IMG/VR virus record: IMGVR_UViG_3300044846_003573
Length of the DNA: 64,000 nt
Source: a virus
Taxonomy: Duplodnaviria; Caudoviricetes
Reading direction: 5' to 3' (one strand)
The notes beneath the pieces are model-generated. The model was not told the origin of the DNA. It did not search any database and saw nothing but the letters and a program-made list of their open reading frames with translations. A program made the translations under genes and the position numbers. This document shows, piece by piece, positions 4,329 to 29,667 of this stretch. How positions within the stretch are numbered: the first letter of the stretch is position 1; each line of letters starts with the position of its first letter.

Positions 4329-4402
4329 GCGCCCTTAGCTCATTCGGTTAGAGCAACTGACTCATAATCAGTGGGTGACAGGTTCGATTCCTGTAGGGCG
4401 CA
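4329..4402 (+). tRNA. tRNA with CAT anticodon (Ile2 or elongator Met)
   Basis: acceptor GCGCCCT/AGGGCGC, anticodon arm ACTGA-CTCATAA-TCAGT, GGTTCGATTCC T-arm; CCA not encoded. Confidence 0.9.
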
Positions 4403-4408
4403 CTTGTT

Positions 4409-4493
4409 GGTTGGATGGTGGAACAGGTAGACACGCAAGACTTAAAATCTTGTGGACATTACGTCCGTGCGGGTTCGATTCCCGCTCCGACTA
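4409..4493 (+). tRNA. tRNA-Leu(TAA)
   Basis: acceptor GGTTGGA/TCCGACT, CAAGA-CTTAAAA-TCTTG, long variable arm, GCGGGTTCGATTCCCGC. Confidence 0.92.
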
Positions 4494-4496
4494 CTA

Positions 4497-4709: not shown

Positions 4710-5760
4710 AGCTGTAGGTGTTCCTTCTGATATTGAAATGATGACTTCGGTATTTGCTGAGGTCGTTAAAAAACTGCTCTATTCTTTCAAGTCATCCAAT
4801 GAACCATTAGAGGAGGTTGAGATTGATGTTAAAACCATTGGTGAAAGTGTTATGCGTAGGGGTGAGATTGAAATTGACGGTGATAAATCTTGGAACATGG
4901 TTAAGGAAACTCAAAGCTTTGATGAACAGGAGTGGGGTAAGTTTCCGATGTATAAAAACCCTATTGATATTAAGTTTGAAATCTTTGAAGAGGGTGTTTT
5001 ACAGGCGGTTTATAAAAGTAATCTTAATGTTGATGCGTCACATAGTTTTGATGCTGCTGACTTCAAGAGTGGTGATGTGTTTGATATTAGTATGTTTGAT
5101 TTCCATATTAGAATGGATGAGGAAACGTGGGATAATCTGGAATTGTTATCTCCAACGTTGGAGTCAGTTATTTCACATGAGTTATTACATGCTTATCAGT
5201 TGTATAAGAGATATACTAATAAGGGTCAGATAGGATTTGGTAAGGGACAGGCAACAAATGTATTGGTTAACGCTATTAAAAGTGAGTTCTTACCTGAATG
5301 GAATAATTTTTTACATTTGATTTATTTGACTTTGAACTTTGAGCAAGACGCTCGTATTCCACAGGTGTCACATATTTTAAGAAGGACTAAAATTGATAGT
5401 TATGAAGATTTCATTGAAGCTTTAAGGGGTACATCGGTTTTTAAAGAGATTAAAGAATTAAGAGATTTCTCAGCGGATGATTTATTTGAATCATTAAAAA
5501 AGATTAATAGTCTCCAAGATATGATATTTAAAGAGGTGGCGGTTGAGAAGGCTTATGAATGGATTTTTGAATGGAATGATATTTTGGAAAAGATTGTTGA
5601 ACATACGGTTGCGAATGGTGTTAGTCCATCGAAGATTGACGCAATACCATTGGCCGTTAGAAAAGACCCAAAGAAGTTTTTTGAATACTTTGAAAGAAAG
5701 TTTAAATTCACGGCTAATAATATGTTAAAGAGAGTTTCAAAACTTTATTCTTTAAGATGA
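4666..5760 (+). CDS. putative zincin metallopeptidase (LLRE tag)
   Basis: ISHELLHAYQ HExxH, later EQDARI; N-terminal KIRNLLRE. Confidence 0.55.
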   Translation: MSVSNKLKIRNLLREAVGVPSDIEMMTSVFAEVVKKLLYSFKSSNEPLEEVEIDVKTIGESVMRRGEIEIDGDKSWNMVKETQSFDEQEWGKFPMYKNPIDIKFEIFEEGVLQAVYKSNLNVDASHSFDAADFKSGDVFDISMFDFHIRMDEETWDNLELLSPTLESVISHELLHAYQLYKRYTNKGQIGFGKGQATNVLVNAIKSEFLPEWNNFLHLIYLTLNFEQDARIPQVSHILRRTKIDSYEDFIEALRGTSVFKEIKELRDFSADDLFESLKKINSLQDMIFKEVAVEKAYEWIFEWNDILEKIVEHTVANGVSPSKIDAIPLAVRKDPKKFFEYFERKFKFTANNMLKRVSKLYSLR

Positions 5761-6137
5761 AATATAAATTAACACCACATCAATATCAGAAACTTCAGAA
5801 CATGATTTATAATGTTATTGAGGATATGATGCCTGAACATATTAATGTTGAGTATGTTGATGGTTATTATCATAGTGATTTGAATGATGTGGATGATATA
5901 AATGAAATTGATTCGGTTTTATTTTATGACGCGGAAAGTTACGAAAATCTTTTTAAGATACGTATAAGACATCATTATGATAATACTGTTCCTAAAATAT
6001 TTATTGAGGATTTTATTAAAGAAAAACTTGATGGTTTATTTGGTGAGGGTAGATGGCATGAACAGTTAATCAAATGGATTGAATACAATCATCCTGAGGT
6101 TTCCACTTTATATGACAAAATTAAATCTGTTGTGTAA
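5757..6137 (+). CDS. MKY-tag variant hypothetical protein
   Basis: MKYKLTPHQYQKL N-terminus. Confidence 0.65.
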   Translation: MKYKLTPHQYQKLQNMIYNVIEDMMPEHINVEYVDGYYHSDLNDVDDINEIDSVLFYDAESYENLFKIRIRHHYDNTVPKIFIEDFIKEKLDGLFGEGRWHEQLIKWIEYNHPEVSTLYDKIKSVV

Positions 6138-6148
6138 TACTTATTAGT

Positions 6149-7303
6149 ATGGCTATCATATATAATAGTATTACTCCAAACAAAATTAAAATAGATTATA
6201 CCACACAAGGGTTTCCAAATACCTTTAATTACGACTCAAATTATTTAAACATTAATACATGGTATTTTGGTATTGATGTTAATAGACCTTACGGACCTTC
6301 TTCAGGTACTGGATGGTATCAGGGGGTTGATGCTCGTACAATAGATGAAGCGACCTACACCATTTATTATACAGGAACAACAATTGGTAATACAGGTAAT
6401 GCCAATGACAAATATAGATGTGTTCAATATGACAACCAATCAGATGTTATAAACTTTGTTAATAATGTAACCGCAGGTTTTCCTACTTTTGGTTCATTAC
6501 CGGATGCATTGAATTGGTTTAAAGATGATGGTTATACTAGAGGTGGTCTAGGTGAAATGGTCTGTGTTAATATGAATTATCCTAATATACCAACATCAGG
6601 ATTAACTTTTGGTGTCGATTCTGGGTTTGTTGCATCCTATCCATGGACAAACCCAACGTGGTATGATTTCGGAATGTCTACTATGAGTGGATTTTCAGGT
6701 AATTCAAGAATAATCCAACATTTTGACAACAGTTTATTTTTTGATTTTATAGATGATGGTTCCCCAACTGAATACTTTACGTCATCAAAACAGGAAAACT
6801 TAGGACAAGATTTTACTGTAATATTTTGGGGTTCACCGGCAGCAGTTGCTGATACTAGAACTCATTCAGTATTTTCAGTTAGGTCAAATAATCGTTCAAA
6901 CTATGTTGGTATTTACGATGATAAGTTTTCAATAACTTTTTATTTCACGGTTCGTGATACTACCGATGGTTTAAAAACTAGACAAGGTGCTACCAATTAC
7001 ACTTCAGGTGTTTGGGCTCAATTCTCATATGTTTTTGAAACCAATAGTGGTGGAACAACGACAACTAGTTTTTATTATAATGATAGTCTTGAAGAAACAA
7101 ATGAAGAAAGTTATTTAGTTGAATCATGGAACTCGGATATTGGTGAAGGATGGGTTATTGGACAGCTTGCTGGTGCAAAATCAGTTACTGAAAACTATTT
7201 TGGTGGTATGGCAGTTGTATTGGTTTATGATAGAGCTCTCAGCGCAACTGAAATTGCTGACATATACCAAAACTATCTTGAAACAAGAACGTTATTTCAG
7301 TGA
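6149..7303 (+). CDS. LamG/concanavalin A-like domain protein, possible virion component
   Basis: C-terminal WAQFSYVF..FYYN..WVIG..YFGG..YDRALSATEIADIY pattern. Confidence 0.65.
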   Translation: MAIIYNSITPNKIKIDYTTQGFPNTFNYDSNYLNINTWYFGIDVNRPYGPSSGTGWYQGVDARTIDEATYTIYYTGTTIGNTGNANDKYRCVQYDNQSDVINFVNNVTAGFPTFGSLPDALNWFKDDGYTRGGLGEMVCVNMNYPNIPTSGLTFGVDSGFVASYPWTNPTWYDFGMSTMSGFSGNSRIIQHFDNSLFFDFIDDGSPTEYFTSSKQENLGQDFTVIFWGSPAAVADTRTHSVFSVRSNNRSNYVGIYDDKFSITFYFTVRDTTDGLKTRQGATNYTSGVWAQFSYVFETNSGGTTTTSFYYNDSLEETNEESYLVESWNSDIGEGWVIGQLAGAKSVTENYFGGMAVVLVYDRALSATEIADIYQNYLETRTLFQ

Positions 7304-7405: not shown

Positions 7406-9277
7406 ATGGGAAAAATTATAGGTATTGACCTTGGAACAACTAATTCATGTGTTGCCGTAATGGAAGGTAACGAACCAGTTGTAATTACAAACAGTGAAGG
7501 AAAAAGAACCACCCCTTCAATTGTGGGTTTCTTAAATGGTGGTGAGAGAAAGGTTGGCGACCCGGCTAAACGTCAGGCGGTTACTAATCCTGATAAGACT
7601 ATCTCATCTATCAAACGTTTCATGGGAACAAGTTTTGATGAAAGTAAGGGTGAGGTTAAACGTGTACCTTATAAAGTGGTTAAGGGTGATGGTGGAACTC
7701 CTCGTGTTGAGATTGAGGATAGAAAGTATTCACCACAAGAAATTTCCGCAATGGTTCTTCAAAAGATGAAACAAACTGCTGAGGACTATTTGGGAAGTGA
7801 AGTTACTGAAGCGGTTATCACCGTACCGGCATACTTCAACGATGCTCAACGTCAAGCTACAAAAGAAGCTGGTGAGATTGCGGGATTGAAGGTGATGAGA
7901 ATTGTTAACGAACCAACTGCGGCAGCACTTGCTTACGGATTGGACAAACAATCTAAAGATATGAAGATTGTTGTGTTTGACTGTGGTGGTGGAACACATG
8001 ACGTATCTGTGTTGGAACTTGGTGATGGTGTGTTTGAAGTATTGTCTACTGATGGTGATACACACCTTGGTGGTGATGACTTTGACCAAGCAATCATTGA
8101 CTGGTTGGTTACAGAGTTCAAAGATGAAAACGGAATTGACTTGACCAAAGATGCTATGGCTCTTCAACGTCTTCGTGAAGGAGCTGAGAAGGCGAAGATT
8201 GAATTATCTTCTTCACCATCTACGGAGATTAACTTACCATATATTATGCCTGTTGATGGTATACCGAAACACTTGGTAAGAACTTTAACTAAGGCTAAGT
8301 TTGAACAACTTGTTGATAGTTTGGTTGAAAGAACTATTGCTCCTTGTAAGTCGGCATTGAAGAACGCAGGAATTAAGACAAGTGATATTGACGAAATCAT
8401 TTTGGTTGGAGGAACAACACGTATTCCGGCAATTCAGGAAGCAGTTAAGAAGTTCTTCGGTAAGGAACCATCAAAGGGTGTTAACCCTGATGAGGTTGTT
8501 GCTCTTGGAGCAGCAATTCAGGCAGGTGTATTAGCAGGTGATGTTAAAGATGTATTGTTATTAGATGTAACACCACTATCACTTGGTATTGAAACTATGG
8601 GTGGAGTATTCACAAAGTTAATTGAGGCTAACACGACTATCCCGACTAAGAAGTCACAGGTATTCTCAACTGCGGTTGATAACCAACCTACCGTTGAAAT
8701 CCATGTATTACAAGGTGAGAGAGCGATGGCTAAAGACAACCGAAGTATTGGACGTTTCCACTTGGATGGTATCCCACCGGCACAAAGAGGTATTCCACAG
8801 GTTGAGGTAACATTTGATATTGATGCTAATGGTATCATCAATGTATCGGCATTAGACAAAGGAACTAACAAACAACAAAATATCCGCATTGAATCATCAT
8901 CAGGACTTTCGAAAGAAGAGATTGAAAAGATGAGACAAGAGGCGGAGATGAACGCTGAATCAGATAAGAAAGCAAAAGAAGATGCTGAGGTTATCAACCA
9001 AGCTGACACAACAATCTTCCAAGTGGAAAAGTCTTTAAAAGATATTGAAGATAAAATCACGGAAGAACAAAAGTCAGAGGTAACAACTGCTCTTGAAGAA
9101 TTGAAATCTGCTCATTCATCAAAGGACATTGAGAAGATTAAGGAAGGAATTGAGAACATTAATAACGTGTTTCAAGGGATTACCGCAAATCTTTATAGTC
9201 AATCGTCTGATATGAATGAAACCATGACTGATGATTCTGAAGTATCTGATGTAGATTTTGAAGAAGTTGGTAAGTAG
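7406..9277 (+). CDS. dnaK: Hsp70 chaperone DnaK
   Basis: [44 protein letters not shown]. Confidence 0.98.
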
Positions 9278-9296: not shown

Positions 9297-9324
9297 AAAA
9301 CCCCTCACTTTGAGGGGTTTTTTT
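9297..9324 (+). terminator. intrinsic terminator
   Basis: AAAACCCCTCA-ctt-TGAGGGGTTTT. Confidence 0.8.
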
Positions 9325-9348
9325 ATTTAATAAAGGTATTTATGAAAT

Positions 9349-10620
9349 ATGACGAAAAATACAAAAATCTATTTACTTTTTTCTATTTTAATAATGTCTG
9401 TATTCTTTTTGGTTAAAACATCTGTTTTACTTGAAATACAGGAATCAACAAGAGTTACACGTGGTATTGAATACATTTGTTTTATTTTGTTAATTCCTAT
9501 ATCAATATTAATGATTAAAGACTTTATCAAATCTAATAAAAATTCAATATCTAAAGAATCTGTAGATAAGTTAATTAAATTAGAAAATGAACTTACTAAT
9601 AGAATGACCGCTATCAATAAATCTAATGCGGTTATTGAATTTGATTTAGAAGGTAATATTATTTTTGCCAATGATTTGTTTATAAAAACTATGGGATATC
9701 CATCACAGGATGAAATAGTTGGAAAACATCACAGAATTTTTGTGGAAGATGATTATGAGAAAAGTGAGGATTATTGTCTTTTTTGGGAAAAATTAAGAAG
9801 TGGTGTATTATTTTCAGGGGAAATTGTTAGAGTTAAAAAAGATGGGTCTTTAGTTTATTTACAAGCGACCTACAATCCTATTTTTGATACTGATGGTAAG
9901 ATTTATCGTGTTATGAAAATCGCTATTGATATCACGAATTCTTACGAACAGAAGAAAGAGATTGAAAGAAAGAATACATACTTGGAACATGCTGCTAAGA
10001 TATTGAGACACGATATGCATTCAGGTATTAATACCTATATACCAAGAGGTGTTAACTCGTTGGAGAGAAGATTAACTCAAGAAGATATTGTTAAACTTAA
10101 AATTGAGGCACCACTTAAAATGATTAAGGAAGGACTTAAGCATTCACAGAAAGTTTATAAAGGTGTTTATGAATTTACCAATCTGGTAAAGAAAGATGTT
10201 GTTCTTAATAAAACTGAATTTAACATCAAGGACATTCTCAAGGACTATTTGTCCTCGACGGCATACATTAGTCAGGTTATGTTGGATGATAACCTACCAA
10301 CGATTGAAGTTAATGAACCATTGTTTTGTACAGCATTGGATAACCTAATTAGGAATGGTTTAAAATATAATGATTCAGATACCAAGTTTGTTAAGATATA
10401 CTCTGAAGGTGATATGATATTCATACAGGATAATGGTAGAGGTATTACCCAAGAAGATTTTAATTATTTATCAAAACCATACACCAGAAAAGAAGGTCAA
10501 AAAGAATCGGGTACTGGTTTAGGATTGAATATCTGTGTTGCCATTTTAGAAGAACACGGATTTAAAATAACCTGTGAAAAAAATGAAACAGGAACTAAAA
10601 TGAAAATCAAATTTAAATGA
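9349..10620 (+). CDS. membrane PAS-domain sensor histidine kinase
   Basis: 2 TM, PAS (AVIEFDLEGNIIFAND..KKDGS..QATYNPI..KIAIDIT), H-box LRHDMHSG, N-box DNLIRNGLKY, DNGRG, GTGLGL. Confidence 0.92.
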   Translation: MTKNTKIYLLFSILIMSVFFLVKTSVLLEIQESTRVTRGIEYICFILLIPISILMIKDFIKSNKNSISKESVDKLIKLENELTNRMTAINKSNAVIEFDLEGNIIFANDLFIKTMGYPSQDEIVGKHHRIFVEDDYEKSEDYCLFWEKLRSGVLFSGEIVRVKKDGSLVYLQATYNPIFDTDGKIYRVMKIAIDITNSYEQKKEIERKNTYLEHAAKILRHDMHSGINTYIPRGVNSLERRLTQEDIVKLKIEAPLKMIKEGLKHSQKVYKGVYEFTNLVKKDVVLNKTEFNIKDILKDYLSSTAYISQVMLDDNLPTIEVNEPLFCTALDNLIRNGLKYNDSDTKFVKIYSEGDMIFIQDNGRGITQEDFNYLSKPYTRKEGQKESGTGLGLNICVAILEEHGFKITCEKNETGTKMKIKFK

Positions 10621-11234
10621 AAACATTACTAACTTTTATTTTCTTAACAATTTCTTTGTTTGGGTTTAGTCAAATTAAATACCCAATTCAAACAATCTAT
10701 AGAGGTGACTCTGTTGTTATCCTATCTGTTAAACAATCTGTTGATATTAATAAAGCAATTGAAACACAAAGAAGGATTATTAGAGAACAAGGTAAAAAAA
10801 TCACATCCTTAAATAATAAGATAGATAGTTTAAATAACATTGTTGAAAATATACCTAACATGTTAGATAGTATCAAATATGTAGCAGATACGACATATAA
10901 ATGGGCTGATGAATTGAATATGACTCTTTGGGAATACGCTACAAATGGAGCGTTCATATACACTATACCCCCATACAACAAGTTATATTTTGTGAATTTA
11001 GATGATTACAATCTTTACACTCATGAATACGGAAAAATTCTTGTTTTTGAAAAAATGACTAAAAGTGAGTATGAAGAATATAAAAAATTCAGAGAAGAGT
11101 TTGATATGCAGTTCGCACCAGCAACAAATTATTTTCACAATTTAAAGTTTCTTGATTTTAATGGTATAACTCGAAGATATGAATCATGGATTTGGAAAAA
11201 TAAAAGTTTATTAAAAGAAGAATTAAAAAAGTAA
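10617..11234 (+). CDS. exported coiled-coil protein
   Basis: signal peptide MKTLLTFIFLTISLFGFSQ; overlaps both kinase genes. Confidence 0.7.
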   Translation: MKTLLTFIFLTISLFGFSQIKYPIQTIYRGDSVVILSVKQSVDINKAIETQRRIIREQGKKITSLNNKIDSLNNIVENIPNMLDSIKYVADTTYKWADELNMTLWEYATNGAFIYTIPPYNKLYFVNLDDYNLYTHEYGKILVFEKMTKSEYEEYKKFREEFDMQFAPATNYFHNLKFLDFNGITRRYESWIWKNKSLLKEELKK

Positions 11235-12562
11235 TGAAAAAGATAATATTATTGATTTTAGTAACACTCGTATCGACAGGTTTACACTCACAAAATTTGA
11301 ATTACAACGATACATTAGTTGACGGAATTGACGTTTCATGGTCTAACGATAATTTACAGATTGATGGTGATACTAGTCAAGTTGCGGCTATGGATATACA
11401 AGAAATCGTTACAACTTGGATTCCACCTGAACCTGAACCAGTTGATGAAACTAAATTGTCTGAAAGTGATTTAGCAAGTATTGCTGAAGACTTACAGTTT
11501 TTAACTGACTTACCAAAATCGTATACTGATTTACCTAAAGAAGATTTAAAAAATGTATTAGTTCAAATTGATAACAAGATTAATAAACTTACCGCAGAAC
11601 GAGATTTATTATTAGCTCAAGCTATAAGAAATGAAGAACTTATAAAATCAAAAGAAAATACCATTACTTCGTTAAGTAAAGAAAAGAATATCATCGGTTT
11701 GACTTTGGAGACTGATGACTTAATGGATGAGAATGGAAATTTGATGACTGAAAAAACTGATTTGGAAAAACAAAGAGAGACCTTGAAGAAATACCTTTAT
11801 GGTGCTTTAGGTGTTGTTATACTGTTTGTTTTAATATTGGCGGTTGTCTTACAAAGAAAGAGAATACAAGTACAGGATGTTGAGATTGAACAACAGATTA
11901 GTGATATTGCTAAGAAGAATAGTTACTTGGAACACGCTGCAAGAATCATTAGACATGACATGCACTCAGGTATTAACACATACATGCCAAGAGGTATTAC
12001 ATCATTAGAAAAAAGATTAACCGTTGAGGACATCCAAAGATTAAAGATTGAAGGGGCACTTAAGATGGTTAAAGAAGGATTAAACCATACGCAAAAAGTT
12101 TATAAGAGTGTTTATGAGTTTACCAATCTTGTTAAACAAAATGTTGTGTTAAATAAATCTGTGGTTAATCTTAAAGATTTGATTTGGAAATACATTTCAC
12201 CAAATTCATATAGTTCACAGGTTGAGATATCTGACTTGGGTGATATGGAAGTGAATGAGACTTTATTCTGTAATGCGGTTGAGAACTTAATTAAGAATGG
12301 TTTATCATATAACGATAGTGAAGTTAAAAAAGTTAAGATATACAACGAAGAAGAATATTTAATAGTTGAGGATAACGGTAAAGGATTCTCACAAAAACAA
12401 CTTGAAAAACATTTAACAAAATACTCAAAGAAGGCTGATGTCACTGGTGAAGAGAAGGGTCTTGGGTTGAATATATGTGTTGCGATATTAGAAGAACATG
12501 GTTTTAAATTGAGTTGTGAAAAAATTGAAGGTGGAACCAAAATGAAAATAAAAATAAAATAA
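11234..12562 (+). CDS. second histidine kinase with exported coiled-coil N-domain
   Basis: signal peptide, single TM, IRHDMHSG H-box, ENLIKNGLSY, DNGKG, GLGLNIC; core paralogous to 9349. Confidence 0.9.
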   Translation: MKKIILLILVTLVSTGLHSQNLNYNDTLVDGIDVSWSNDNLQIDGDTSQVAAMDIQEIVTTWIPPEPEPVDETKLSESDLASIAEDLQFLTDLPKSYTDLPKEDLKNVLVQIDNKINKLTAERDLLLAQAIRNEELIKSKENTITSLSKEKNIIGLTLETDDLMDENGNLMTEKTDLEKQRETLKKYLYGALGVVILFVLILAVVLQRKRIQVQDVEIEQQISDIAKKNSYLEHAARIIRHDMHSGINTYMPRGITSLEKRLTVEDIQRLKIEGALKMVKEGLNHTQKVYKSVYEFTNLVKQNVVLNKSVVNLKDLIWKYISPNSYSSQVEISDLGDMEVNETLFCNAVENLIKNGLSYNDSEVKKVKIYNEEEYLIVEDNGKGFSQKQLEKHLTKYSKKADVTGEEKGLGLNICVAILEEHGFKLSCEKIEGGTKMKIKIK

Positions 12563-13285
12563 GTGGCATACGTTTACCAACATATTAGAAAAGACACTAA
12601 TGAACCTTTTTATATTGGGATTGGTAGTGATTTAAATTTTTATCGGGCTAATAAGTTCTCTGAAAGAAATGAAATATGGGAAAGAATTAAAAATAAAACT
12701 GAAATTTTAGTTGAAATATTACATAATAATATTGAATGGGATGAAGCTTGTGAAATTGAGATAGAACTAATAAAAAAATATGGTAGAATAAATAATAAAA
12801 CTGGTATTTTATCTAATATGACTGATGGAGGTGAAGGGACTTTGAATCGGGTGATTAATGAAGATACTAGGTATTTGTTAGGTAATGGAAATAGAGGGAA
12901 ACAAAGAACTGACGAATCTAGGTTAAAACAAAGTATTACTAATAAAGGTGTTAAAAAAACAAAAGAACATTGTGAAAAAATACGACAATATAGATTAGGA
13001 AAAAAAATGAGTGAGGAGAGCAAGAAAAAAATGTCGGAAAATTCAAAAGGAAGACAAACTTGGAATAAAGGGGTTAAATTTACAGAAGAATCTAAAATTA
13101 AAATGAGTAATTCAAAAAAAGGTAAAAAAACTTCAGGTAATAACCCAAATTCTAAAATAGTTTTAAATACTGAAAATGGTATTTATTATGATACTCTTAA
13201 AGATGCTGCGTTATCTGTTAATATAGGGTATTCAAATTTTAAACAAAAAATAAAAAAAAATAAAATAAATTTTAAATATGTGTAA
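12563..13285 (+). CDS. GIY-YIG-like/NUMOD3 homing endonuclease
   Basis: YVYQH..PFYIGIG, NMTDGGEG, SEESKKKMS repeats. Confidence 0.8.
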   Translation: MAYVYQHIRKDTNEPFYIGIGSDLNFYRANKFSERNEIWERIKNKTEILVEILHNNIEWDEACEIEIELIKKYGRINNKTGILSNMTDGGEGTLNRVINEDTRYLLGNGNRGKQRTDESRLKQSITNKGVKKTKEHCEKIRQYRLGKKMSEESKKKMSENSKGRQTWNKGVKFTEESKIKMSNSKKGKKTSGNNPNSKIVLNTENGIYYDTLKDAALSVNIGYSNFKQKIKKNKINFKYV

Positions 13286-13287
13286 AA

Positions 13288-13719
13288 ATGATTGATTCAA
13301 TTTTATTGGTTGATGATGAAGACCTTTTTCATCTAGTTTTTGAGGACTCTTGTTCATTACTTGACATTACATTGTCATTAAGAAGTTTGAACAGTTCGGA
13401 TGAAGCTGCTAAACTATTTGCTGGATGGCAAAAAGATACATCACAAAAACCTGAATGTGTGTTTGTGGATTTAAACATTATAGGTTCATCCTTTGATGGT
13501 ATTGAACTTATCCGTAAGATTAACTTTGAATATGGTAACCATGTAGTTATCGGTATCATATCTTCAAGTAACGAACCTGAAGAACAGGCTAAGGCAGTTC
13601 AGGCTGGTGCTCAGTTTTGGATTATCAAGTCGGATGACATTGAACCAAGACTTGAAGAGTTTAAGAAAGACTACGACGGATATAAGAACAGAACAAACCC
13701 TTTCAAAGTTTATAAATGA
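13288..13719 (+). CDS. single-domain response regulator (receiver)
   Basis: LLVDDED, VFVDLN phospho-Asp, IISSS, WIIKS. Confidence 0.9.
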   Translation: MIDSILLVDDEDLFHLVFEDSCSLLDITLSLRSLNSSDEAAKLFAGWQKDTSQKPECVFVDLNIIGSSFDGIELIRKINFEYGNHVVIGIISSSNEPEEQAKAVQAGAQFWIIKSDDIEPRLEEFKKDYDGYKNRTNPFKVYK

Positions 13720-14399
13720 TTGTTTTAGATAAAAATACAAAGAAGATATTAATGGAGACCTTTAAGACCAAGAACATTGGTCTTGAGGGTAACATTACTA
13801 AATTAATAGATGCTGAAGATGACCAAGAGTTTAAAGAGTATCTTAAAACTTGTATTGAAAAGGATACGACAACTAGACGTAAACGTTTAGAGATGACCAA
13901 ACAGGTTCAGGTTCAGAACAAAGACTTGACTGAACTTAACGAAGAAAACCAAAGAATACTTGAGGAACTCCAAAATACTTTAACAGGTATGGAGAACCAA
14001 AACAATCAGATTGAGAGTCAAAACTCTGAACTTCTTGAATGGAAATTAGAAAACGAAAAGATTAGTGCCGAACTTGTTGAGGCGATGAAACAATCTGAAC
14101 AAGCAAGAATAACTGCTGAAAACGCTAAAAACGAAGCGGAAAACAATTTGGATTTAATACAGAAGAAAACTCAATTTGAGTTGATTAATAATATTGTTAG
14201 AGTTGCTCTCTATGTAATCATAGGTGTTGGATTTATTACGACTGGTATATATGTTTATTCTATGTCAATAGGAATGGATACAGACATCATCGGCTCTACT
14301 TGGAGTAATATGTTTGGTATTCTATTAACAAATAGTTTCAGTATCGTGGGAACAATACTTGGGGTGAAGTATGGGGCAAGTCCTAACAAGGATAAATAA
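13716..14399 (+). CDS. coiled-coil protein with two C-terminal TM helices
   Basis: long Q/E/N coiled coil then two hydrophobic helices. Confidence 0.75.
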   Translation: MIVLDKNTKKILMETFKTKNIGLEGNITKLIDAEDDQEFKEYLKTCIEKDTTTRRKRLEMTKQVQVQNKDLTELNEENQRILEELQNTLTGMENQNNQIESQNSELLEWKLENEKISAELVEAMKQSEQARITAENAKNEAENNLDLIQKKTQFELINNIVRVALYVIIGVGFITTGIYVYSMSIGMDTDIIGSTWSNMFGILLTNSFSIVGTILGVKYGASPNKDK

Positions 14400-14415
14400 A
14401 TAAAAAAATAAAAAA

Positions 14416-14940
14416 ATGAGTAGATTTAAAAGAATGTTATTCGGTGAAACTCCGTATGTAAAGGTTGAAGATAAAAATAGATTTTATTACATGCTTCAAC
14501 AGATGCAGGCAAACAGATGGAAGATAACAATGATTGTATTGTTTTTATTCTTCTTTATCATTGCCGGTATAAACTCCGCAATATTTTTTGGTGTGTCCAT
14601 TGAAGAAAGTTGGAAAGAAATGTTATTGATATTATTTGGAGCGTTTGTTGGTAATCTTAATAAGGTTGTTGATTACTGGTTCAACTCTGAAGACAGAGAC
14701 AAGATGTTAATTCAAAAGGTTGACGAGGAAGATGGAACATCACTATCAAGTGCTGTGGAATACCCAATAACACCAAGACCACCACAACCACCAGTTGTTG
14801 TAGTTACACAAGTTAAAGAAGAAACTCCTGTGGTTGTTGAAGAACCAGTTGTTTATACTGAACCTGAAGTATATGAGGAACCAATCGTTGAGGAATACCC
14901 AACAGAGGAACCGACACAAGAAGGTGAAGAAAACGTATAA
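14416..14940 (+). CDS. 2-TM membrane protein with acidic Pro-rich tail
   Basis: LLILFGAFVGNLNKVVDYWF after TM1; E/P-rich C-terminus. Confidence 0.75.
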   Translation: MSRFKRMLFGETPYVKVEDKNRFYYMLQQMQANRWKITMIVLFLFFFIIAGINSAIFFGVSIEESWKEMLLILFGAFVGNLNKVVDYWFNSEDRDKMLIQKVDEEDGTSLSSAVEYPITPRPPQPPVVVVTQVKEETPVVVEEPVVYTEPEVYEEPIVEEYPTEEPTQEGEENV

Positions 14941-14955
14941 TAAGTTAACTTAATA

Positions 14956-14991
14956 TTGAAAACCCCACTTGAAAAGGTGGGGTTTTTGTTT
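14956..14991 (+). terminator. intrinsic terminator, copy 1 of a 36-bp direct repeat
   Basis: TTGAAAACCCCACTTGAAAAGGTGGGGTTTTTGTTT. Confidence 0.85.
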
Positions 14992-15025: not shown

Positions 15026-15712
15026 ATGAAAAAAATTATTTTAAGTATTATTATGTCAACTATGTTATTTAGTTGTGATACAAGTACAAAAACTGAAAAT
15101 GCTGAAGACATTAAATCTGATAAAATTGTTAAGATACATGATGGGTCTTTTGCTTTTTGTGGTGCATCGGGAGCGATTCCAACCGGACGAAAGATTGTTG
15201 TTCAAGGTGTAGAATATGATGAGGGTTGTGCAATATGTCCTGTATTATCAGGGCCATCAATCTCCAATTTGGCGATGGAAGGTTTTAGTGAAACCTACGG
15301 AAAGTTTAATGTTAATGAATACTTCCAAAGTCCTGACGGAACCAATAATACTGTTTGGTCGTTATTTTGGTATTATGATTCAACTACGACTATTCCTCAA
15401 TTTAACCCTTCAACTAAAGAATGGGAAATGATGACACCTGTGAATAGAGCTTTTGTTGTGAATACAGATGAACCAAGTACAAGTGAAAGTAATATGTTCG
15501 CAATGCCAGGTATTATTTTTGATACAACATCTACAGGTATTGTGTTGGCAAAAGTATATGGCCCACTTAACGAGGCTGCGGTTCCACTACGTAAAGCAAT
15601 TCCTGTTAAAACAGGTATGACATCAATCACGGCAGCTAAGATTGGATTTCCTTATCCTGTGGGGACACCTGTACCTATTGCTGAGTATAGTAAAGAACTT
15701 CAAAAAAAGTAA
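15026..15712 (+). CDS. lipoprotein
   Basis: lipobox LFSC after a hydrophobic signal. Confidence 0.7.
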   Translation: MKKIILSIIMSTMLFSCDTSTKTENAEDIKSDKIVKIHDGSFAFCGASGAIPTGRKIVVQGVEYDEGCAICPVLSGPSISNLAMEGFSETYGKFNVNEYFQSPDGTNNTVWSLFWYYDSTTTIPQFNPSTKEWEMMTPVNRAFVVNTDEPSTSESNMFAMPGIIFDTTSTGIVLAKVYGPLNEAAVPLRKAIPVKTGMTSITAAKIGFPYPVGTPVPIAEYSKELQKK

Positions 15713-15728
15713 AAACAAATAAATATTG

Positions 15729-15764
15729 TTGAAAACCCCACTTGAAAAGGTGGGGTTTTTGTTT
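15729..15764 (+). terminator. intrinsic terminator, copy 2 of the 36-bp direct repeat
   Basis: identical to 14956-14991. Confidence 0.85.
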
Positions 15765-15776: not shown

Positions 15777-16214
15777 AGTTACAAGAGTTCTTTGAAATAA
15801 ATAAAGAGATAATATTATGGAAACAACTTATTTTGTTTTAGGTATGCTCTCGGTTGTTGCTCTAATTTTCATTGGGGTAATTGCTTGGGGTATGGTTAAG
15901 ATTAGTAAACAACAAACAGAAATTGGAAATTTGAAAGAAGATATCCAAGGATTAGTGAGAACAATATCACAAGAAATAGAAGATACGACTCGTCGTATTG
16001 ATTATGAAAGACAAAACATTCAATCTGAGGTTAGAGGATATAGCGACAGATTGGAAAGACAAATTACAGATATTTGGAGAGGTATGACGGATTCTATTTC
16101 TGAATCCAACTCATATACTGACAAACGAATTGATAAATTAATTGATACCTATGATATCAAGAAAGAAAAAGACCTGTTAAAAGGATAAAATAAACATAAA
16201 GAACTCTTGTAACT
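15777..16214. repeat. 17-bp perfect inverted repeat enclosing one gene
   Basis: AGTTACAAGAGTTCTTT (15777-15793) / AAAGAACTCTTGTAACT (16198-16214). Confidence 0.85.
15817..16188 (+). CDS. membrane-anchored coiled-coil protein
   Basis: N-terminal TM then coiled coil. Confidence 0.7.
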   Translation: METTYFVLGMLSVVALIFIGVIAWGMVKISKQQTEIGNLKEDIQGLVRTISQEIEDTTRRIDYERQNIQSEVRGYSDRLERQITDIWRGMTDSISESNSYTDKRIDKLIDTYDIKKEKDLLKG

Positions 16215-16231: not shown

Positions 16232-16423
16232 ATGAAAACTTTCAAAAAAATAATAGGAATACTTCCCTTAATCGTTGCTCTTTACCTTTTTGTGGTATTG
16301 TTGATTTCAGCTTTTACAGGAACTAAAATTGAAGAATATGTTGATGTTAAGTGGTGGGGATTGTTCCTTTTAGTTGACCTTTGGGCTGAACAAAAAAATA
16401 AGAAGTTATATGAGGGTGAATAA
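16232..16423 (+). CDS. small membrane protein
   Basis: two hydrophobic segments. Confidence 0.55.
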   Translation: MKTFKKIIGILPLIVALYLFVVLLISAFTGTKIEEYVDVKWWGLFLLVDLWAEQKNKKLYEGE

Positions 16424-16813: not shown

Positions 16814-17512
16814 ATGATTTTAAAGATTGAACAAGACATAAAAGGAATATTCCCAAACGTATGGATATGTTCTGACCCGCACTACAATCACAAGAACATT
16901 TGTAGAGGAACGACTAATTGGAGAACAACAGATAACGAAATCCCTGTTGACCAAACTCGTGACTTTGACACACTTGAACGAATGAACCAATCTATCGTTG
17001 ATGGTATCAATTGGAACGTTGGACAGGATGATGTATTGGTTTGTCTTGGTGACTGGTCCTTTGGTGGGTTTGAGTTCATTAAACAATTCAGAGATAGAAT
17101 TGTGTGTAAGAATGTTCACCTTGTATTAGGTAACCATGACCAACACGTTGAAAGAAACAAAGGGGACATACAATCAATCTTCAGTTCAGTATCCGAATAC
17201 CTACGACTTGTAGTTATGGAACCTGTTAAGAAGAACGAAGTAAAGAGACATGAGTTTGTATGTATGCACTACCCAATCCAAAGTTGGGACGGAATGAATA
17301 AAGGTATTCCTCACCTTCACGGACACGTTCACTTACCAAACAATAAAAAGTTTGGTAATGGAAAGAAAATGGACGTTGGGTTTGACGGACACCCTGAGTT
17401 CCGACCATACAACTTGTTGAGAGAAGTATTACCTTTGATGAAAAATCGTGAGCAGTTGTCGGATATGCCGAATGACCACCACCTTGAAAGATTATTAAAC
17501 GCTGATAAATAA
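16814..17512 (+). CDS. calcineurin-like metallophosphoesterase
   Basis: SDPHYNH, LGDWS, GNHD, HLHGHVH. Confidence 0.88.
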   Translation: MILKIEQDIKGIFPNVWICSDPHYNHKNICRGTTNWRTTDNEIPVDQTRDFDTLERMNQSIVDGINWNVGQDDVLVCLGDWSFGGFEFIKQFRDRIVCKNVHLVLGNHDQHVERNKGDIQSIFSSVSEYLRLVVMEPVKKNEVKRHEFVCMHYPIQSWDGMNKGIPHLHGHVHLPNNKKFGNGKKMDVGFDGHPEFRPYNLLREVLPLMKNREQLSDMPNDHHLERLLNADK

Positions 17513-17518
17513 AAATAC

Positions 17519-17968
17519 ATGAAAATCTATCTAGATGATATCCGAACACCTGTTGAAAAAGACTGGCAGGTTGTTAGAACTTTTTACGAACTATCTGATT
17601 TAATCCAAAAGGTTGGATTGAATGTTGTTGATGTTATATCATTAGACCACGACTTGGGTGATAGTGCTATGACTGAGTATCACACAAACGTTTCACCTAA
17701 CTATAAATTGAGTTATGAGAACATTGATGAGAAGACTGGATACGACGGTGCGAAGTTCTTGGTTGATGAGTTCTATAAACTAAACCCTGAAAGATTGGAG
17801 ATGAGCCGTTCCGACAAAAAGAAAGAACCAATTAAGTTCCCTGATGTTTATACCCACTCAGCTAATCCTATTGGTAGTGCTAACATCATGGGTTATATCA
17901 ATAACTTCTTGATGAATGAGGGTAAACCACAAAATTGTATCAGAGTTCAAATACCACACACAGTATGA
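17519..17968 (+). CDS. cyclic-phosphate-processing receiver-like domain protein
   Basis: IYLDDIRTP, ISLDHDLG, TGYD, HSANPIG. Confidence 0.75.
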   Translation: MKIYLDDIRTPVEKDWQVVRTFYELSDLIQKVGLNVVDVISLDHDLGDSAMTEYHTNVSPNYKLSYENIDEKTGYDGAKFLVDEFYKLNPERLEMSRSDKKKEPIKFPDVYTHSANPIGSANIMGYINNFLMNEGKPQNCIRVQIPHTV

Positions 17969-18174
17969 CAAGTAGAATAGTTTTTGATGTTGAATTAACG
18001 TTAGACCAAAGAATTGAGATTATTGAAAAGGTTGACCAACACTTTGATATTCTTGATTTTGGAATCAATAGTAATTTCAATAGAGATACTGAGGACAAGG
18101 ATTTACATACACAAATTGATGTGATGTATCCTGGTGTCCCAAGAAAAGTAACCGCTTATTACATAATTAATTAA
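17965..18174 (+). CDS. hypothetical protein
   Basis: overlapping stop/start in operon. Confidence 0.55.
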   Translation: MTSRIVFDVELTLDQRIEIIEKVDQHFDILDFGINSNFNRDTEDKDLHTQIDVMYPGVPRKVTAYYIIN

Positions 18175-18350
18175 TATGGGACACGCAATTGTTATTATAT
18201 TTTGTTGGGCATTTTTTATTAGTATTAGTGTCCTTTTAGTAGTAATTTTAGGAACTTATTTGGCAGATACGTTTAAAGATAGTAAATTTGACAAATGGTG
18301 GAGACGCCATATTATTGATGATATACCTGAAGAATTAGAAGATTAAAATT

Positions 18351-18740
18351 ATGAAAACATTATATATCGTAAGAGGAATACCAGGAAGTGGCAAAAGCAC
18401 ATTTGCACAATCATTGGATTGTCCTGTATTTGAGGCTGACCAATATTTTATTGATTCTGAAACAGGTGAATACAAATTTGACGGGTCAAAAATAAAACTG
18501 GCTCATAACTGGTGTAAATTACGTGTTGAGCAAAGTATGGAAGATGATTTTCAAAAGATTGCCGTTTCAAACACCTTTACACAAGAGTGGGAAATGGATG
18601 CTTACTATGAGTTAGCCAAACAATACGGATACAGAGTTTTTTCACTTATAGTGGAGAACAGACATGGTGGTGTAAATGAACATGGTGTGCCTGAAGACAA
18701 GTTAGAATTAATGAAAAACCGTTTTGAAGTAAAACTTTAA
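18351..18740 (+). CDS. polynucleotide-kinase-like P-loop kinase (AAA_33 type)
   Basis: IVRGIPGSGKST, EADQYF, VSNTF. Confidence 0.8.
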   Translation: MKTLYIVRGIPGSGKSTFAQSLDCPVFEADQYFIDSETGEYKFDGSKIKLAHNWCKLRVEQSMEDDFQKIAVSNTFTQEWEMDAYYELAKQYGYRVFSLIVENRHGGVNEHGVPEDKLELMKNRFEVKL

Positions 18741-18746
18741 CAAACA

Positions 18747-19346
18747 ATGATTGATAATATTGAATTAATAAAACCATTATTGAACTTTGAAAACGAGGGT
18801 GACTTCTATATGCTCTACGTATTCAAACGAAAGAAGGACCAACCTGAAGGTGAGAGAGACAATCACCAATCAGTTCGGACTATTAAAACTTATTGTGTTG
18901 AAAGTATTGAATACTTGGAGAAACGATACGATGAGATTAAACAACTCTGTGAGATGTTTAAAGCTCGGGCATATATCCACGTTCAAAAACAAAACCATAA
19001 GGATGTGTCTTTGGAAATGATGATTGGACTGGCTGAAAAGATTAAGAACGGACAACATAACCAAAAACATTTGTTTGACTCAGTTGTCGGACAGATTAAA
19101 ACTCATGAGAAGAGGTGGATTGTAGATTTGGATACTCAAGATGAAGACGAAGTGGTTAGAATGACAAAAGTTATCAATATCACTAGACCTGAAGGAGATA
19201 AGATTAAATGTATCATTCCAACCAAAAATGGTTATCATTTCATTACCGATAGATTTGATGTATCGCAATTTAGTAATGTATATCCTGACGTTGATATTCA
19301 GAAAAAAAATCCAACTTTGTTATTTTTACCTAATTCATTATGTTAA
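18747..19346 (+). CDS. hypothetical protein, possible AEP-like catalytic motifs
   Basis: WIVDLD (DxD) and TKNGYH (sxH). Confidence 0.45.
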   Translation: MIDNIELIKPLLNFENEGDFYMLYVFKRKKDQPEGERDNHQSVRTIKTYCVESIEYLEKRYDEIKQLCEMFKARAYIHVQKQNHKDVSLEMMIGLAEKIKNGQHNQKHLFDSVVGQIKTHEKRWIVDLDTQDEDEVVRMTKVINITRPEGDKIKCIIPTKNGYHFITDRFDVSQFSNVYPDVDIQKKNPTLLFLPNSLC

Positions 19347-19726
19347 TTTCATTTATTATTATCTTCATCCATTGGATTGCCGACTTTGTATTACAAACTG
19401 ACTGGCAAGCCCAAAACAAAAGTAAGAACAACTTTGCTTTATTAAGCCACACATCAAATTATTCAATGGTGTGGTTGTTACCTATGTGTTTTGTCTTTGG
19501 TATAATGAAACAAGGTGCGACAACTGAATGGATTGTTTGGTCTACTTTATATTTTAGTATGATTACTTTTGTTGTTCACACTATTACCGATTACTTTACT
19601 AGTCGTCTGAATAGTAAGTTATGGACGGGAGGTAAAGTTCATTACTTCTTTGTCAGTGTTGGTTTTGACCAAGTGTTACATTATGGTCAGTTATTTTTAA
19701 CATATCATTATTTGTTTAATCGTTAA
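19340..19726 (+). CDS. DUF3307-like membrane protein
   Basis: HWIADFVLQ, H..D, GFDQVLH. Confidence 0.75.
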   Translation: MLISFIIIFIHWIADFVLQTDWQAQNKSKNNFALLSHTSNYSMVWLLPMCFVFGIMKQGATTEWIVWSTLYFSMITFVVHTITDYFTSRLNSKLWTGGKVHYFFVSVGFDQVLHYGQLFLTYHYLFNR

Positions 19727-19746
19727 TTGTTTTGTATCTTTGTTAA

Positions 19747-20808
19747 ATGAACGAAGTGCTAAACAAATATTTTGAGGAAGGGTTGGTGTATAAACAATTA
19801 CATCCAACTCTTCCTTTGACTATATGGAACTACACTGAAAAGGTTCAGTATGAAGGTCTTTTTGATGATGTTACTTTACAAACTCGTGGGTTAGTTACTG
19901 ACAACAAAGGTAATGTTGTTGCTCGTCCATTTAGAAAGTTCTTCAACATAGAAGAAGAAAGACACACTCCGACTTCTGAGTTTGATGTTTATGAAAAGAT
20001 GGATGGTTCACTTGGTATATTGTTCAACTATGAGGGACAATGGGTGATAGCAACTCGTGGTTCATTTGCGTCTGACCAATCATTAAAAGGTTTCTTCATG
20101 TTACAAAAGTATGACTTTAAGAAACTTCACAAAGATTACACTTACCTGTTTGAAATAATATATGATGATAACCGTATAGTTGTTAAGTATGACTATGAGG
20201 ACTTGGTATTACTTGGTATGATAAATACTGAAACTGGGTATGAGGTTGATTTACATGGTGAAGGTAACGATGTTAGATTTAAGAACATGGTTAACAATCT
20301 TGGTTTCAAAGTTGTCAAAAAATACGATGGAATTCGGGATTATACCGAATTGAAGGATAAAGTTGAGCAAAACGCTGAAGGATTTGTTGTTCGTTTTTCT
20401 AATGGAGATAGAATGAAAGTTAAGGGTGTTAAGTATCTTCGTCTTCATAAACTTATGACTAATGTATCTACTACTTCTGTTTGGGAAATGTTGAGCGAGG
20501 ACAAAGATGTATTGGAAATACTGAAAGATGTTCCTGACGAATTCTATAAGAAGATAAAGATGTATGTTCAAGAGTTAAGATATAACCACTATCAGTTTGG
20601 AGAACGTGCTGGTAAGATATATCAGTATTTCAGATATGGTAAGTATGGGGACAGAGAAACTGAACCATCAAAGAAAGACTTTGCTTTACACTTACAAGAA
20701 TGTGAAACTCACCCAAAGATAAAGGCGTTATGTTTTATGATGTGGGATGGAAAGAGTACTGATAAAGTAATATGGAATTATTTAAAACCCGAATATAAAA
20801 AGTTATGA
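19747..20808 (+). CDS. T4 RNA ligase 1-like RNA ligase
   Basis: RGLV..RPFRKFFN, EKMDGS, EGFVV, MKVK. Confidence 0.9.
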   Translation: MNEVLNKYFEEGLVYKQLHPTLPLTIWNYTEKVQYEGLFDDVTLQTRGLVTDNKGNVVARPFRKFFNIEEERHTPTSEFDVYEKMDGSLGILFNYEGQWVIATRGSFASDQSLKGFFMLQKYDFKKLHKDYTYLFEIIYDDNRIVVKYDYEDLVLLGMINTETGYEVDLHGEGNDVRFKNMVNNLGFKVVKKYDGIRDYTELKDKVEQNAEGFVVRFSNGDRMKVKGVKYLRLHKLMTNVSTTSVWEMLSEDKDVLEILKDVPDEFYKKIKMYVQELRYNHYQFGERAGKIYQYFRYGKYGDRETEPSKKDFALHLQECETHPKIKALCFMMWDGKSTDKVIWNYLKPEYKKL

Positions 20809-21005
20809 AAAAAGAAACATTTGGACAAATAGACCAAACCAATCCTGTTACAAGAGGTAGTACCGCTTTGGTATATAAAGAAGAAACACTTGAAGATGCA
20901 GCACAATCTTACGCTGTAAATCAAAGAAATAGAACTTCTCATTATATGGGGTTTATTCAAGGTGCTAAATGGATGGAAAGACAACTGAAAAATAAAACTA
21001 AATAA
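20805..21005 (+). CDS. hypothetical protein
   Basis: GFIQGAKW motif common in small phage proteins. Confidence 0.55.
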   Translation: MKKETFGQIDQTNPVTRGSTALVYKEETLEDAAQSYAVNQRNRTSHYMGFIQGAKWMERQLKNKTK

Positions 21006-21009
21006 AACT

Positions 21010-21288
21010 ATGAAAAAAATTTTAATATCCCCTTGGACATTGTTCTTCGTGTTCGTCGCAACAGTAATGTCGTTAATTGTAATTGCGTCTTATGATAAAC
21101 AAAATGGTTATTATTATAGTGAGGCTCATTATGTTATAAAGGTTGAGAGACACCGACCACAGAATGTTCATGAAGAGATGAACTTGTATTATGATATCAC
21201 ACTTGAAAATGGTGTGGAGATGAAGTCGTTGAGACAGGTATCTGTTGGTGATACTATCTACTTTGATATGTATAAAGTTGGAAAGTAA
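21010..21288 (+). CDS. membrane-anchored hypothetical protein
   Basis: N-terminal TM. Confidence 0.6.
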   Translation: MKKILISPWTLFFVFVATVMSLIVIASYDKQNGYYYSEAHYVIKVERHRPQNVHEEMNLYYDITLENGVEMKSLRQVSVGDTIYFDMYKVGK

Positions 21289-21312
21289 GTAATTTATTCG
21301 TATATTTGTTAA

Positions 21313-21993
21313 ATGTTGAAAGTAACCCTAATATCAGACACGCACACTAAAGAACGAAATGTTCTTGTGAATGGTGGTGATTTGATTTTACATAGCGGTG
21401 ACGTTATGAACTCAGGTTATAATTGGGAAGATTTGTATGACTTCTTAAAATGGTTCAGTGAGTTACCATATAAGATGAAGGTATTCATTCCTGGTAATCA
21501 CGACAGATACATTGAGGACAAACCATTTGACGCTTGGAAGATGATTCGTGAGTTTAACGACAAAGGTGTTGTTTGTTTGATTGATGACTTCGTTGAGTTT
21601 GAGGGATTGAAAATCTATGGTAGTCCTTGGCAACCTGAGTTCTACAATTGGGCATTCAATCTACCACGTAATGGTAAGGAGTTGGAAGAGAAGTGGGCAA
21701 ACATTCCTGACGATACCGACATCTTATTGACACACGGACCGGCTTGGGGTATCTTGGATACTGTAGTCAATCGTCGTGATATGAACTTGGGTTGTGAGAT
21801 GTTAACCAAACGATTGGAGACATTACACCCACTAATCCATAGTTGTGGGCATATCCACACAGGTTATGGGTATGTTGAGAAGAACGGAACACACTTCTTC
21901 AACGCATCTATCTTGGATGAGCGTTACCGTCACAACCAAAAACCTTTTGATATCACAATTAATTTAGAAAATAAACAAATAGATATATTATGA
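21313..21993 (+). CDS. metallophosphoesterase (MPPED-like)
   Basis: ISDTH, HSGD, PGNHD, LLTHGP, CGHIH. Confidence 0.88.
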   Translation: MLKVTLISDTHTKERNVLVNGGDLILHSGDVMNSGYNWEDLYDFLKWFSELPYKMKVFIPGNHDRYIEDKPFDAWKMIREFNDKGVVCLIDDFVEFEGLKIYGSPWQPEFYNWAFNLPRNGKELEEKWANIPDDTDILLTHGPAWGILDTVVNRRDMNLGCEMLTKRLETLHPLIHSCGHIHTGYGYVEKNGTHFFNASILDERYRHNQKPFDITINLENKQIDIL

Positions 21994-22259
21994 AAAAATC
22001 AAATTTTTATGTGGTGATGTTATTCACATCACTAACAATTATGGCAACAATGGTATCTTGTACCGATGCTGAAAAGAGTAAACTAGGTGGATATGGTGAT
22101 ACGTTCACAGTTAAAGTATTAGGACCTGACACCATAATTACTTACCATTCAACAGGTAAGGTTATTAGTGAACAAAATTCTGATGGATATTATTTCACAA
22201 ACCGAGATAATGGTAAATTAGTTGAGGTAAGTGGAAATGTTATAATAGAACAAGAATAA
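21990..22259 (+). CDS. small lipoprotein
   Basis: MVSC lipobox. Confidence 0.6.
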   Translation: MKKSNFYVVMLFTSLTIMATMVSCTDAEKSKLGGYGDTFTVKVLGPDTIITYHSTGKVISEQNSDGYYFTNRDNGKLVEVSGNVIIEQE

Positions 22260-22260
22260 T

Positions 22261-29623: not shown

Positions 29624-29667
29624 GATTTCCGTTGGTTTCCATATATTTATATAATATACGGAAACCT

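Follow-up and report, generated by a model that had tools for sequence, protein, structure and literature searches.

Why should a virus carry what looks like a complete bacterial two-component signalling system, and to what would such a system report? This question is raised by a block of genes in a stretch of viral DNA of 64,000 nucleotides (nt), IMG/VR record IMGVR_UViG_3300044846_003573, which we call the window and whose coordinates count from its first letter. The original prediction, made from the letters alone, had listed a PAS kinase, an exported protein, a paralogous kinase, a receiver and two membrane proteins in this block, and every one of these items was found in its place. Judging from its sequence and that of its relatives, the operon is very probably a functional, phage-owned relay in which many kinases signal to one receiver. 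The best reading of the whole, a phage phosphorelay that would act by contact on the membrane protein O6 and would probably set the timing of lysis, we regard as an evenly balanced proposition. The proteins concerned, with lengths in amino acids (aa) and with transmembrane (TM) segments, are the following:

9349-10620, + strand: HK1, a membrane-anchored PAS histidine kinase, 423 aa, with Pfam PAS and HATPase_c matches
10617-11234, + strand: O2, an exported protein, 205 aa, with a signal peptide ending ..FSQ and a long helix
11234-12562, + strand: HK2, a paralogous kinase, 442 aa, HATPase_c E 1.2e-12
13288-13719, + strand: the stand-alone receiver, 143 aa, PF00072 at 36.4 bits against a cut-off of 30.2
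13716-14399, + strand: O6, a phage-only membrane protein with a coiled coil and a TM hairpin, 227 aa, TM segments at 156-174 and 199-217
14416-14940, + strand: O7, a membrane protein, 174 aa, TM segment at 40-58 and a weaker second one

Together with a gene for a homing endonuclease, these form seven tightly packed open reading frames (ORFs) on the + strand between 9349 and 14940, in the order HK1, O2, HK2, homing endonuclease, receiver, O6, O7. HK1 and O2 overlap by 4 nt, as do the receiver and O6, and O2 overlaps HK2 by 1 nt; the gaps amount to 0 nt between HK2 and the endonuclease, 2 nt between the endonuclease and the receiver and 16 nt between O6 and O7. The claim of a tightly coupled operon therefore stands as far as the close junctions go, but the operon is not uninterrupted, since it has been invaded by a mobile endonuclease gene, a seventh ORF (12563-13285) that had gone unreported.

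The first step of the answer concerns the kinases. HK1 has two N-terminal TM segments joined by a loop of about 15 aa, followed by a PAS domain, a divergent DHp domain and a CA domain (Pfam PAS_3, PF08447, E 1e-12; PF13426, E 1.8e-12; HATPase_c, E 9.5e-15). HK2 begins with a signal peptide and a largely helical extracytoplasmic stretch of about 170 aa, and after one TM segment it runs directly into its DHp-CA core. The two cores are 60% identical, and the unusual H-box RHDMHSGINTY, predicted to be common to both kinases, is read in both sequences. The core of HK1 aligns over its full length with Thermotoga HK853 (3dge/2c2a), with the His of RHD lying on the phospho-His of the H-box, and contains the N-box Asn as well as the G1 (DNGxG) and G2 (GLGL) motifs; HK2 has lost the first Gly of the G2 box. 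No variation is seen in R-H-D, S-G-I-N, P-R-G, the N-box Asn or D-N-G-x-G, either among 18 kinase members or among 59 diverse ones, and about 90 clusters at 50% identity show the H-box in its longer form, LEHAAKI[IL]RHDMHSGINTY.P, with hardly a change. The N-terminal parts vary far more: among the 59 members, 25 have PAS, 5 have GAF and 1 has TPR domains, the rest being TM segments or unrecognised. By alignment, then, the kinases have the H-box of a HisKA-type DHp domain and a proper CA domain. It counts against this assignment that Pfam HisKA gave no match in any kinase member examined, and because this model never fires, the DHp domain would represent a separate, divergent subfamily. Kinase inactivity was considered as well, and was rejected in view of the invariant catalytic motifs and the alignment with HK853.

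The receiver is the best conserved part of the system. Across 19 relatives there is no change in residues D9, D10, D61, S92-94 or K114, and the mean column identity is 83% across hosts with G+C contents (GC) of 0.30-0.67. Family searches found no output domain in it; all that lies beyond PF00072 is a conserved C-terminal tail of 25 aa. The match to PF00072 and the invariant residues thus bear out the prediction of a receiver with intact D-D/D/S/K residues and no DNA-binding output. As kinases and receiver alike have kept their catalytic motifs, the system appears intact, as had been supposed, and we infer that kinases and receiver look active in phosphotransfer. In the mechanism that we propose, HK1 and HK2 would share one transmitter core, and both would phosphorylate or dephosphorylate the single receiver on Asp61.

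In this respect the module resembles Class I (HisKA-type) systems with single-domain receivers, such as PleC/DivJ-DivK and CheA-CheY, which likewise combine a DHp-CA core with a CheY-like receiver and in which several kinases can address one receiver that works by contact. It differs from them in being phage-encoded, in having a DHp domain too divergent for Pfam HisKA and a near-invariant H-box, and in having as its fixed partner a membrane protein found only in phages.

Does the phage own this system, or has it merely picked up a bacterial one? Judged by its genes and relatives, the window is DNA of a giant (jumbo), T4-like, uncultured phage. Its gene content includes an RNA ligase, thymidylate synthase, homing endonucleases, an endolysin and two tRNAs. 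Receiver relatives were found in 456 IMG/VR contigs. Some of these are complete records (294-322 kb; terminal repeats in one), and a terminase and a T4-type Gp23 capsid gene are present in these complete relatives. The operon is thus phage-borne and complete, as predicted, in the sense that its relatives are complete jumbo T4-like phage genomes. The closest relative, G001, is an IMG/VR contig of 85.6 kb (CheckV 29% complete) with 97% identity to the window across the operon. When the operon was compared by blastn with 50,697 phage records, nothing matched, and tblastn of HK1 against phage records gave partial, distant matches only.

About 170 viral and metagenome loci were fetched overall (GC 0.28-0.67), and most of them carry one or more kinases, a receiver and O6. 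Gene order was counted in the 88 loci that had been retrieved by way of the receiver or the H-box: 83 of them run kinase(s)-receiver-O6, the start of O6 lying at most a few nt from the receiver stop; the others are either cut short or exceptional, as is the locus L091. The same arrangement predominated among the marine and estuarine loci (GC 0.28-0.52) that an alignment-based metagenome scan brought up when a short, remotely related kinase subfamily served as the query (core identity 34-45%, N-terminal domain of another kind); single-sequence viral scans with P0226 and P0221 gave no match. The conserved unit is therefore kinase(s)-receiver-O6, and O2 with HK2, O7 and the endonuclease are lineage-specific additions.

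It has to be asked, however, whether this could be a captured Bacteroidota host operon with an ordinary role, or decaying cargo. A scan for the H-box motif in 185,579 species genomes yielded just 8 loci, all in metagenome-assembled genomes (MAGs) assigned to six phyla, and in three of the four MAG contigs tested (L085, L087 and L088) the neighbours are phage genes, namely a T4-type topoisomerase II, a virion structural protein and strong PHROG-only families. In five MAGs holding copies of the module, Gp23 was not found. The only one of the 8 loci in a chromosomal context, which speaks for capture, is L091, on a 967-kb Bacteroidetes MAG contig (G006 contig C1, at about 503.9-520.6 kb). It has a multi-PAS kinase and a receiver with 56% and 62% identity, and its neighbours are cellular genes: TauE, cytochrome c, TetR and ABC1. 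O6 is missing at L091, with a TetR-like gene in its place. In the receiver tree (midpoint root, long branch) L091 pairs with L089 on a separate branch, which can be counted in favour of capture; the tree gives no transfer direction. Against capture, a search for the receiver in 400 genomes drawn from all over the phylum found it at E <= 1e-12 in the genome of L091 alone, O6 is virus-only, and hundreds of phage contigs keep intact motifs under strong purifying selection. Capture or decay is for these reasons very improbable. The module is not a Bacteroidota chromosomal operon and is essentially absent from bacterial chromosomes, so that the question whether its homologs are phage-restricted is answered by 8 loci in 185,579 genomes, one of them chromosomal, and not by an operon widespread in Bacteroidota. 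A recently captured host operon was likewise rejected on account of the H-box scan and the 400-genome receiver search. As a separate observation, the kinase of L091 is possibly split in two ORFs (5727-7274 and 7416-8693).

If the relay belongs to the phage, what would the receiver act on? Its constant companion is O6, the start of which overlaps the receiver stop (ATGA). The alignment of O6 shows a conserved small N-terminal head, a stalk of variable length (35-42 residues are missing in some members) and a near-invariant C-terminal TM hairpin, which is polar and Gly-rich (..STWSNMFGILLTN.FSIVGTI.GVKY). The AlphaFold2 model (pLDDT 82) has a small cap, a helix at 37-185 and a return helix at 190-220; Foldseek of this model, which is mostly one long helix plus a hairpin, gave no match in the PDB at E <= 0.001. 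Its Atlas clusters are 96-100% viral and without Pfam annotation. That the operon signals to membrane effectors rather than to transcription fits the fixed, translationally coupled receiver-O6 pair; the part of this claim that concerned O7 is not supported, O7 being a lineage-specific neighbour only. O7 has a basic N-terminus and an acidic, Pro-rich tail and is holin-like in shape only. It accompanies O6 in 23 of the 88 loci, invariably as the next gene, and in 9 of these the endolysin comes after it with two small ORFs in between. We consider it more probable than not that O6 is the direct target of the receiver, which would act by contact on its co-translated partner, with a cytoplasmic head and stalk and a TM hairpin.

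The head of O6 could be read differently, as a small conserved N-terminal domain on a long stalk that binds another protein. O6 might then tether a transcription factor that the phospho-receiver sets free, giving indirect control of gene expression and switching a developmental stage, for instance the late programme or a delay resembling pseudolysogeny, and the upstream motif GTATTTAT, which is shared by several genes, could be enlisted in favour of this. Library scans, however, found no DNA-binding or anti-sigma-like domain in O6 or in neighbouring genes, and no candidate factor is conserved beside the module, which leaves this an improbable explanation.

As to the output of the receiver-O6 contact, the neighbourhood of the module in related phages gives a hint. 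Of the gene families found next after the module, the most frequent encodes an endolysin that combines PG_binding_1 with GH19 (phrog_181, E 3.5e-68). In the 87 fetched stretches that served for distance counts, this endolysin is present in 53, lies within 3 kb in 51 and is directly adjacent in 36. The arrangements number at least six, among them after O6 (22 loci), divergent before a kinase (11), after O7 and two small ORFs (9) and co-oriented before a kinase (3). From the position of O6 beside the endolysin in many related phages it follows that lysis timing is the most likely output. The relay would then control hole formation, with O6 as holin or antiholin; on present evidence we put this forward tentatively, as somewhat less than an even prospect. 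Measured against what is expected of a holin, a TM protein beside an endolysin, O6 has the TM hairpin, and it is adjacent in 36 of 87 relatives and not in the window.

Several observations speak against lysis as the output. The loci are related, so that their adjacencies are not independent, and in 19 loci the endolysin is missing although either flank extends for 3 kb or more. None is found near the module in the window or in its nearest relatives G001, L005 and L016. The phrog_181-type (family-3) endolysin lies about 30 kb 5' of HK1 in G001, at a position that falls outside the window, and about 22 kb off in the L005 contig; the GH19-like gene of the window itself (35235-36146, - strand) is 31% identical to that endolysin and lies 21 kb downstream. 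Many relatives have a small one-TM ORF on the far side of the endolysin which is possibly the true holin. A cytoplasmic stalk of about 150 aa is unusual for a holin, and O6 matches no known holin or antiholin family in Pfam, PHROG, NCBIfam or by PDB fold. Searches of O6 and O7 against Pfam, PHROG and NCBIfam gave only weak matches far below curated cut-offs. A T-holin Pfam search of five relatives gave no match, but neither did its positive control, so that it counts neither way. The case for lysis control in this particular genome would thus come from its relatives and not from local linkage. Beside these genes stand three ORFs downstream of O7, one lipoprotein-like (15026-15712), one with an N-terminal TM segment and a coiled coil (15817-16188) and one small TM protein (16232-16423), which have spanin- or holin-like shapes and only weak family matches (E ~5e-4).

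In another explanation, the relay is real and its output is not lysis. The receiver, alone or with O6, would serve as a takeover device directed at some machinery of the host or at one of its two-component pathways, for instance in motility, secretion, metabolism or the response to envelope stress, and O6 would be a membrane anchor or scaffold, a phosphatase or a sink for the receiver. Single-domain receivers such as CheY and DivK act on varied protein targets, and a receiver far more conserved than its partners (the 83% noted above, over the same wide range of hosts) would fit several binding partners; furthermore, the module of the window follows dnaK and lies 20-30 kb from either endolysin. 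On the other hand, a target of this sort would have to have been conserved in hosts that differ widely, the polar TM hairpin of O6, which hardly varies, looks functional and not like a passive anchor, and the repeated adjacency to an endolysin in several arrangements is left unexplained. A takeover of this kind is rather unlikely in our view.

What would the relay sense? The best solved relatives of the PAS domain of HK1 are MmoS (3ewk, E 2.5e-14) and then Aer, NifL and the phototropin LOV domain, and HK1 has a His at the position of the LOV cysteine. MmoS, Aer, NifL and LOV domains are flavin-binding PAS sensors. Because of these relatives, the guess that the PAS domain senses redox state gains some support, although it stays a prediction, and it is plausible that HK1 reads a redox-type signal from the cytoplasm through a flavin-type PAS domain. 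HK2 together with the exported O2 would read an envelope or periplasmic signal. O2 contains a conserved stretch, YPIQTI..GDSVVIL, and is found in 20 of the 88 loci, each time directly 5' of the second kinase, so that it is a probable periplasmic co-sensor of HK2. Family-library searches gave no match for O2, its Atlas search was uninformative, and its AlphaFold2 model is of low confidence (pLDDT 66, pTM 0.27).

Spelled out in full, the preferred phosphorelay would have the phospho-receiver bind the stalk of O6, a novel holin or antiholin, and so couple redox or energy state and an envelope or superinfection signal to the moment of lysis, with kinases freely swapped between phage lineages to suit host and habitat. 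In this detailed form it is a doubtful proposition.

Comparison with known lysis regulation is instructive here, lysis inhibition in T4 and ICP1 and gp62/gp63 of phage N4 being the nearest analogues in function. LytSR with LrgAB/CidAB is a two-component control of holin-like proteins in Firmicutes, and its regulator LytR is a DNA-binding LytTR protein. What the two would have in common is the coupling of a two-component system to membrane proteins that resemble holins or antiholins. The differences are that LytSR is cellular, that its output is transcription through LytTR whereas the phage receiver, having no output domain, is not a LytTR-type DNA-binding regulator, and that its kinase has an unrelated sensor architecture. 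To our knowledge, reading of the cell state by lytic phages is known in few cases, namely lysis inhibition in T4 and ICP1, arbitrium and phage quorum-sensing receptors. In T4, lysis inhibition involves the holin T with the antiholins RI/RIII, and in ICP1 TeaA/ArrA (PMC11413866, PMC7182436). Here, too, a T4-like phage would perhaps tune lysis to a sensed condition, the HK2-O2 arm could correspond to RI, and membrane proteins lie by lysis genes in relatives; there is no sequence relation, however, and the signal would travel by phosphorylation and cytoplasmic contact instead of periplasmic contact between holin and antiholin. Phage N4 has in gp62/gp63 a two-TM lysis regulator with cytoplasmic termini, for which regulation of the pinholin from the cytoplasmic side was proposed (PMC12642591). 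A two-TM regulator and control from the cytoplasmic side would be common to both. Homology is lacking, N4 has neither a kinase nor a CheY-type receiver, and its "Receiver domain" is merely the name of a region of gp63 (PMC12642591).

A full-text literature search found no publication describing the module, and a jumbo-phage survey mentions just a different, non-kinase-linked cREC receiver (PMC7824862). If the preferred reading is right, the module would add a virus-owned, classical His-Asp phosphorelay to the known means of phage sensing. The sensors of this relay would be interchangeable, and its output would lie at the membrane instead of in transcription; the module is conserved in jumbo-phage contigs from fresh water and the sea, which number in the hundreds. 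Two unannotated groups of proteins would be defined with it, a subfamily of kinases specific to phages and a novel family of membrane proteins. Its three or four small proteins would furthermore make a tractable system for phage sensing and for lysis timing, which governs burst size and phage ecology.

With respect to the host, a Gln follows immediately after the signal peptide in O2 (Q19, invariant) and in HK2. In Bacteroidetes, such a Gln directly following the signal peptide is described as the Q-rule (PMC5837995). Because of this match, the host of the window lineage is likely a member of the Bacteroidota.

The gene that interrupts the operon is of another kind:

12563-13285, + strand: a free-standing GIY-YIG/NUMOD3 homing endonuclease, 240 aa, between HK2 and the receiver

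NUMOD3 matches at 32 bits against a cut-off of 20.4 and phrog_314 at E 7.8e-22, and the motif ..YVY..(10)..YIG.. is read in the sequence; the Pfam GIY-YIG model gave no match at E 0.01. The gene is missing from the 97%-identical G001, where a spacer of about 14 nt stands instead. It occurs in four loci only (the window, L017, L020 and L047), always at one site, immediately behind the stop codon that ends the last kinase, in place of a short A-rich spacer. With its N-terminal motif, its NUMOD module and its presence or absence at one site, the gene has by sequence the hallmarks of a GIY-YIG homing endonuclease. It is a selfish insertion without a signalling role, and in the proposed mechanism it would stay outside signalling. 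The Seg-type GIY-YIG endonucleases of T4-like phages are alike in combining GIY-YIG with NUMOD3, in being intergenic and in their presence or absence between near-identical genomes; the insertion site, after the last kinase stop codon inside a signalling operon, is new in comparison. The window holds two more homing endonuclease genes on the + strand, at 29632-30492 (phrog_655), directly after thymidylate synthase (28793-29623), and at 33480-34223 (phrog_314).

The boundaries of the operon are marked by three elements:

9297-9321, + strand: the intrinsic terminator of the upstream dnaK/Hsp70 gene, which forms the 5' boundary of the operon (11-bp stem, 5 G-C pairs, T run)
9336-9343, + strand: the GTATTTAT motif, a possible promoter or leader element, 5 nt 5' of the HK1 ATG
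14958-14988, + strand: a G+C-rich, terminator-like hairpin closing the operon, read in the sequence

The placing of the operon between a TATTTAT motif and a terminator was correct, as GTATTTAT at 9336-9343 and the hairpin at 14958-14988 are both present. In the window, GTATTTAT has 16 copies against 8.0 +/- 2.9 in shuffles and is thus twice as frequent. The copies often lie 13-28 nt 5' of ORF starts (9336, 14998, 55173, 56224, 58572), the listed + strand positions also include 38991 and 57250, and one copy is 42 nt from an ORF start. GTATTTAT may be a phage promoter or leader element. A sigma-70 promoter scan of the window was no better than chance (43 found, 42.6 expected from shuffles). The closing hairpin has a 100% identical copy at 15730-15761 (+), which is called as a terminator; the two identical hairpins (GAAAACCCCACTTGAAAAGGTGGGGTTTTTG) flank the lipoprotein-like gene at 15026-15712, and the hairpin at 9297-9321 resembles them. 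PADLOC defence-system models gave no match to any of the seven operon proteins, and with zero matches a known anti-phage defence system is ruled out as the identity of the operon.

Finally, some observations on the surroundings may be added. Directly 5' of the operon lies a gene for a full-length Hsp70/DnaK (7406-9277, +; PF00012, E 5e-260). Its product is about 70% identical to the DnaK of the "uncultured phage" records LR745206, LR756502 and LR756501 (635-735 kb), and in relatives the dnaK gene is found on either side of the module. Relative to the window, G001 has 715 bp extra after O7 and is missing a 380-bp stretch that includes an MGS-like ORF (PF02142; 16374-16796, +). This is followed, at 16814-22989 (+), by a run of genes with the look of RNA repair or counter-defence: a Metallophos gene (16814-17512), a cREC_REC cyclic-phosphate receiver (PF20274; 17519-17968), an AAA_33 kinase-like gene (18351-18740), an RNA ligase (phrog_562; 19747-20808), a second Metallophos gene (21313-21993) and a Tad6 Thoeris inhibitor (PF25188; 22261-22989). 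The two tRNA genes, for tRNA-Met (CAT) and tRNA-Leu (TAA), adjoin each other at 4329-4494 (+).

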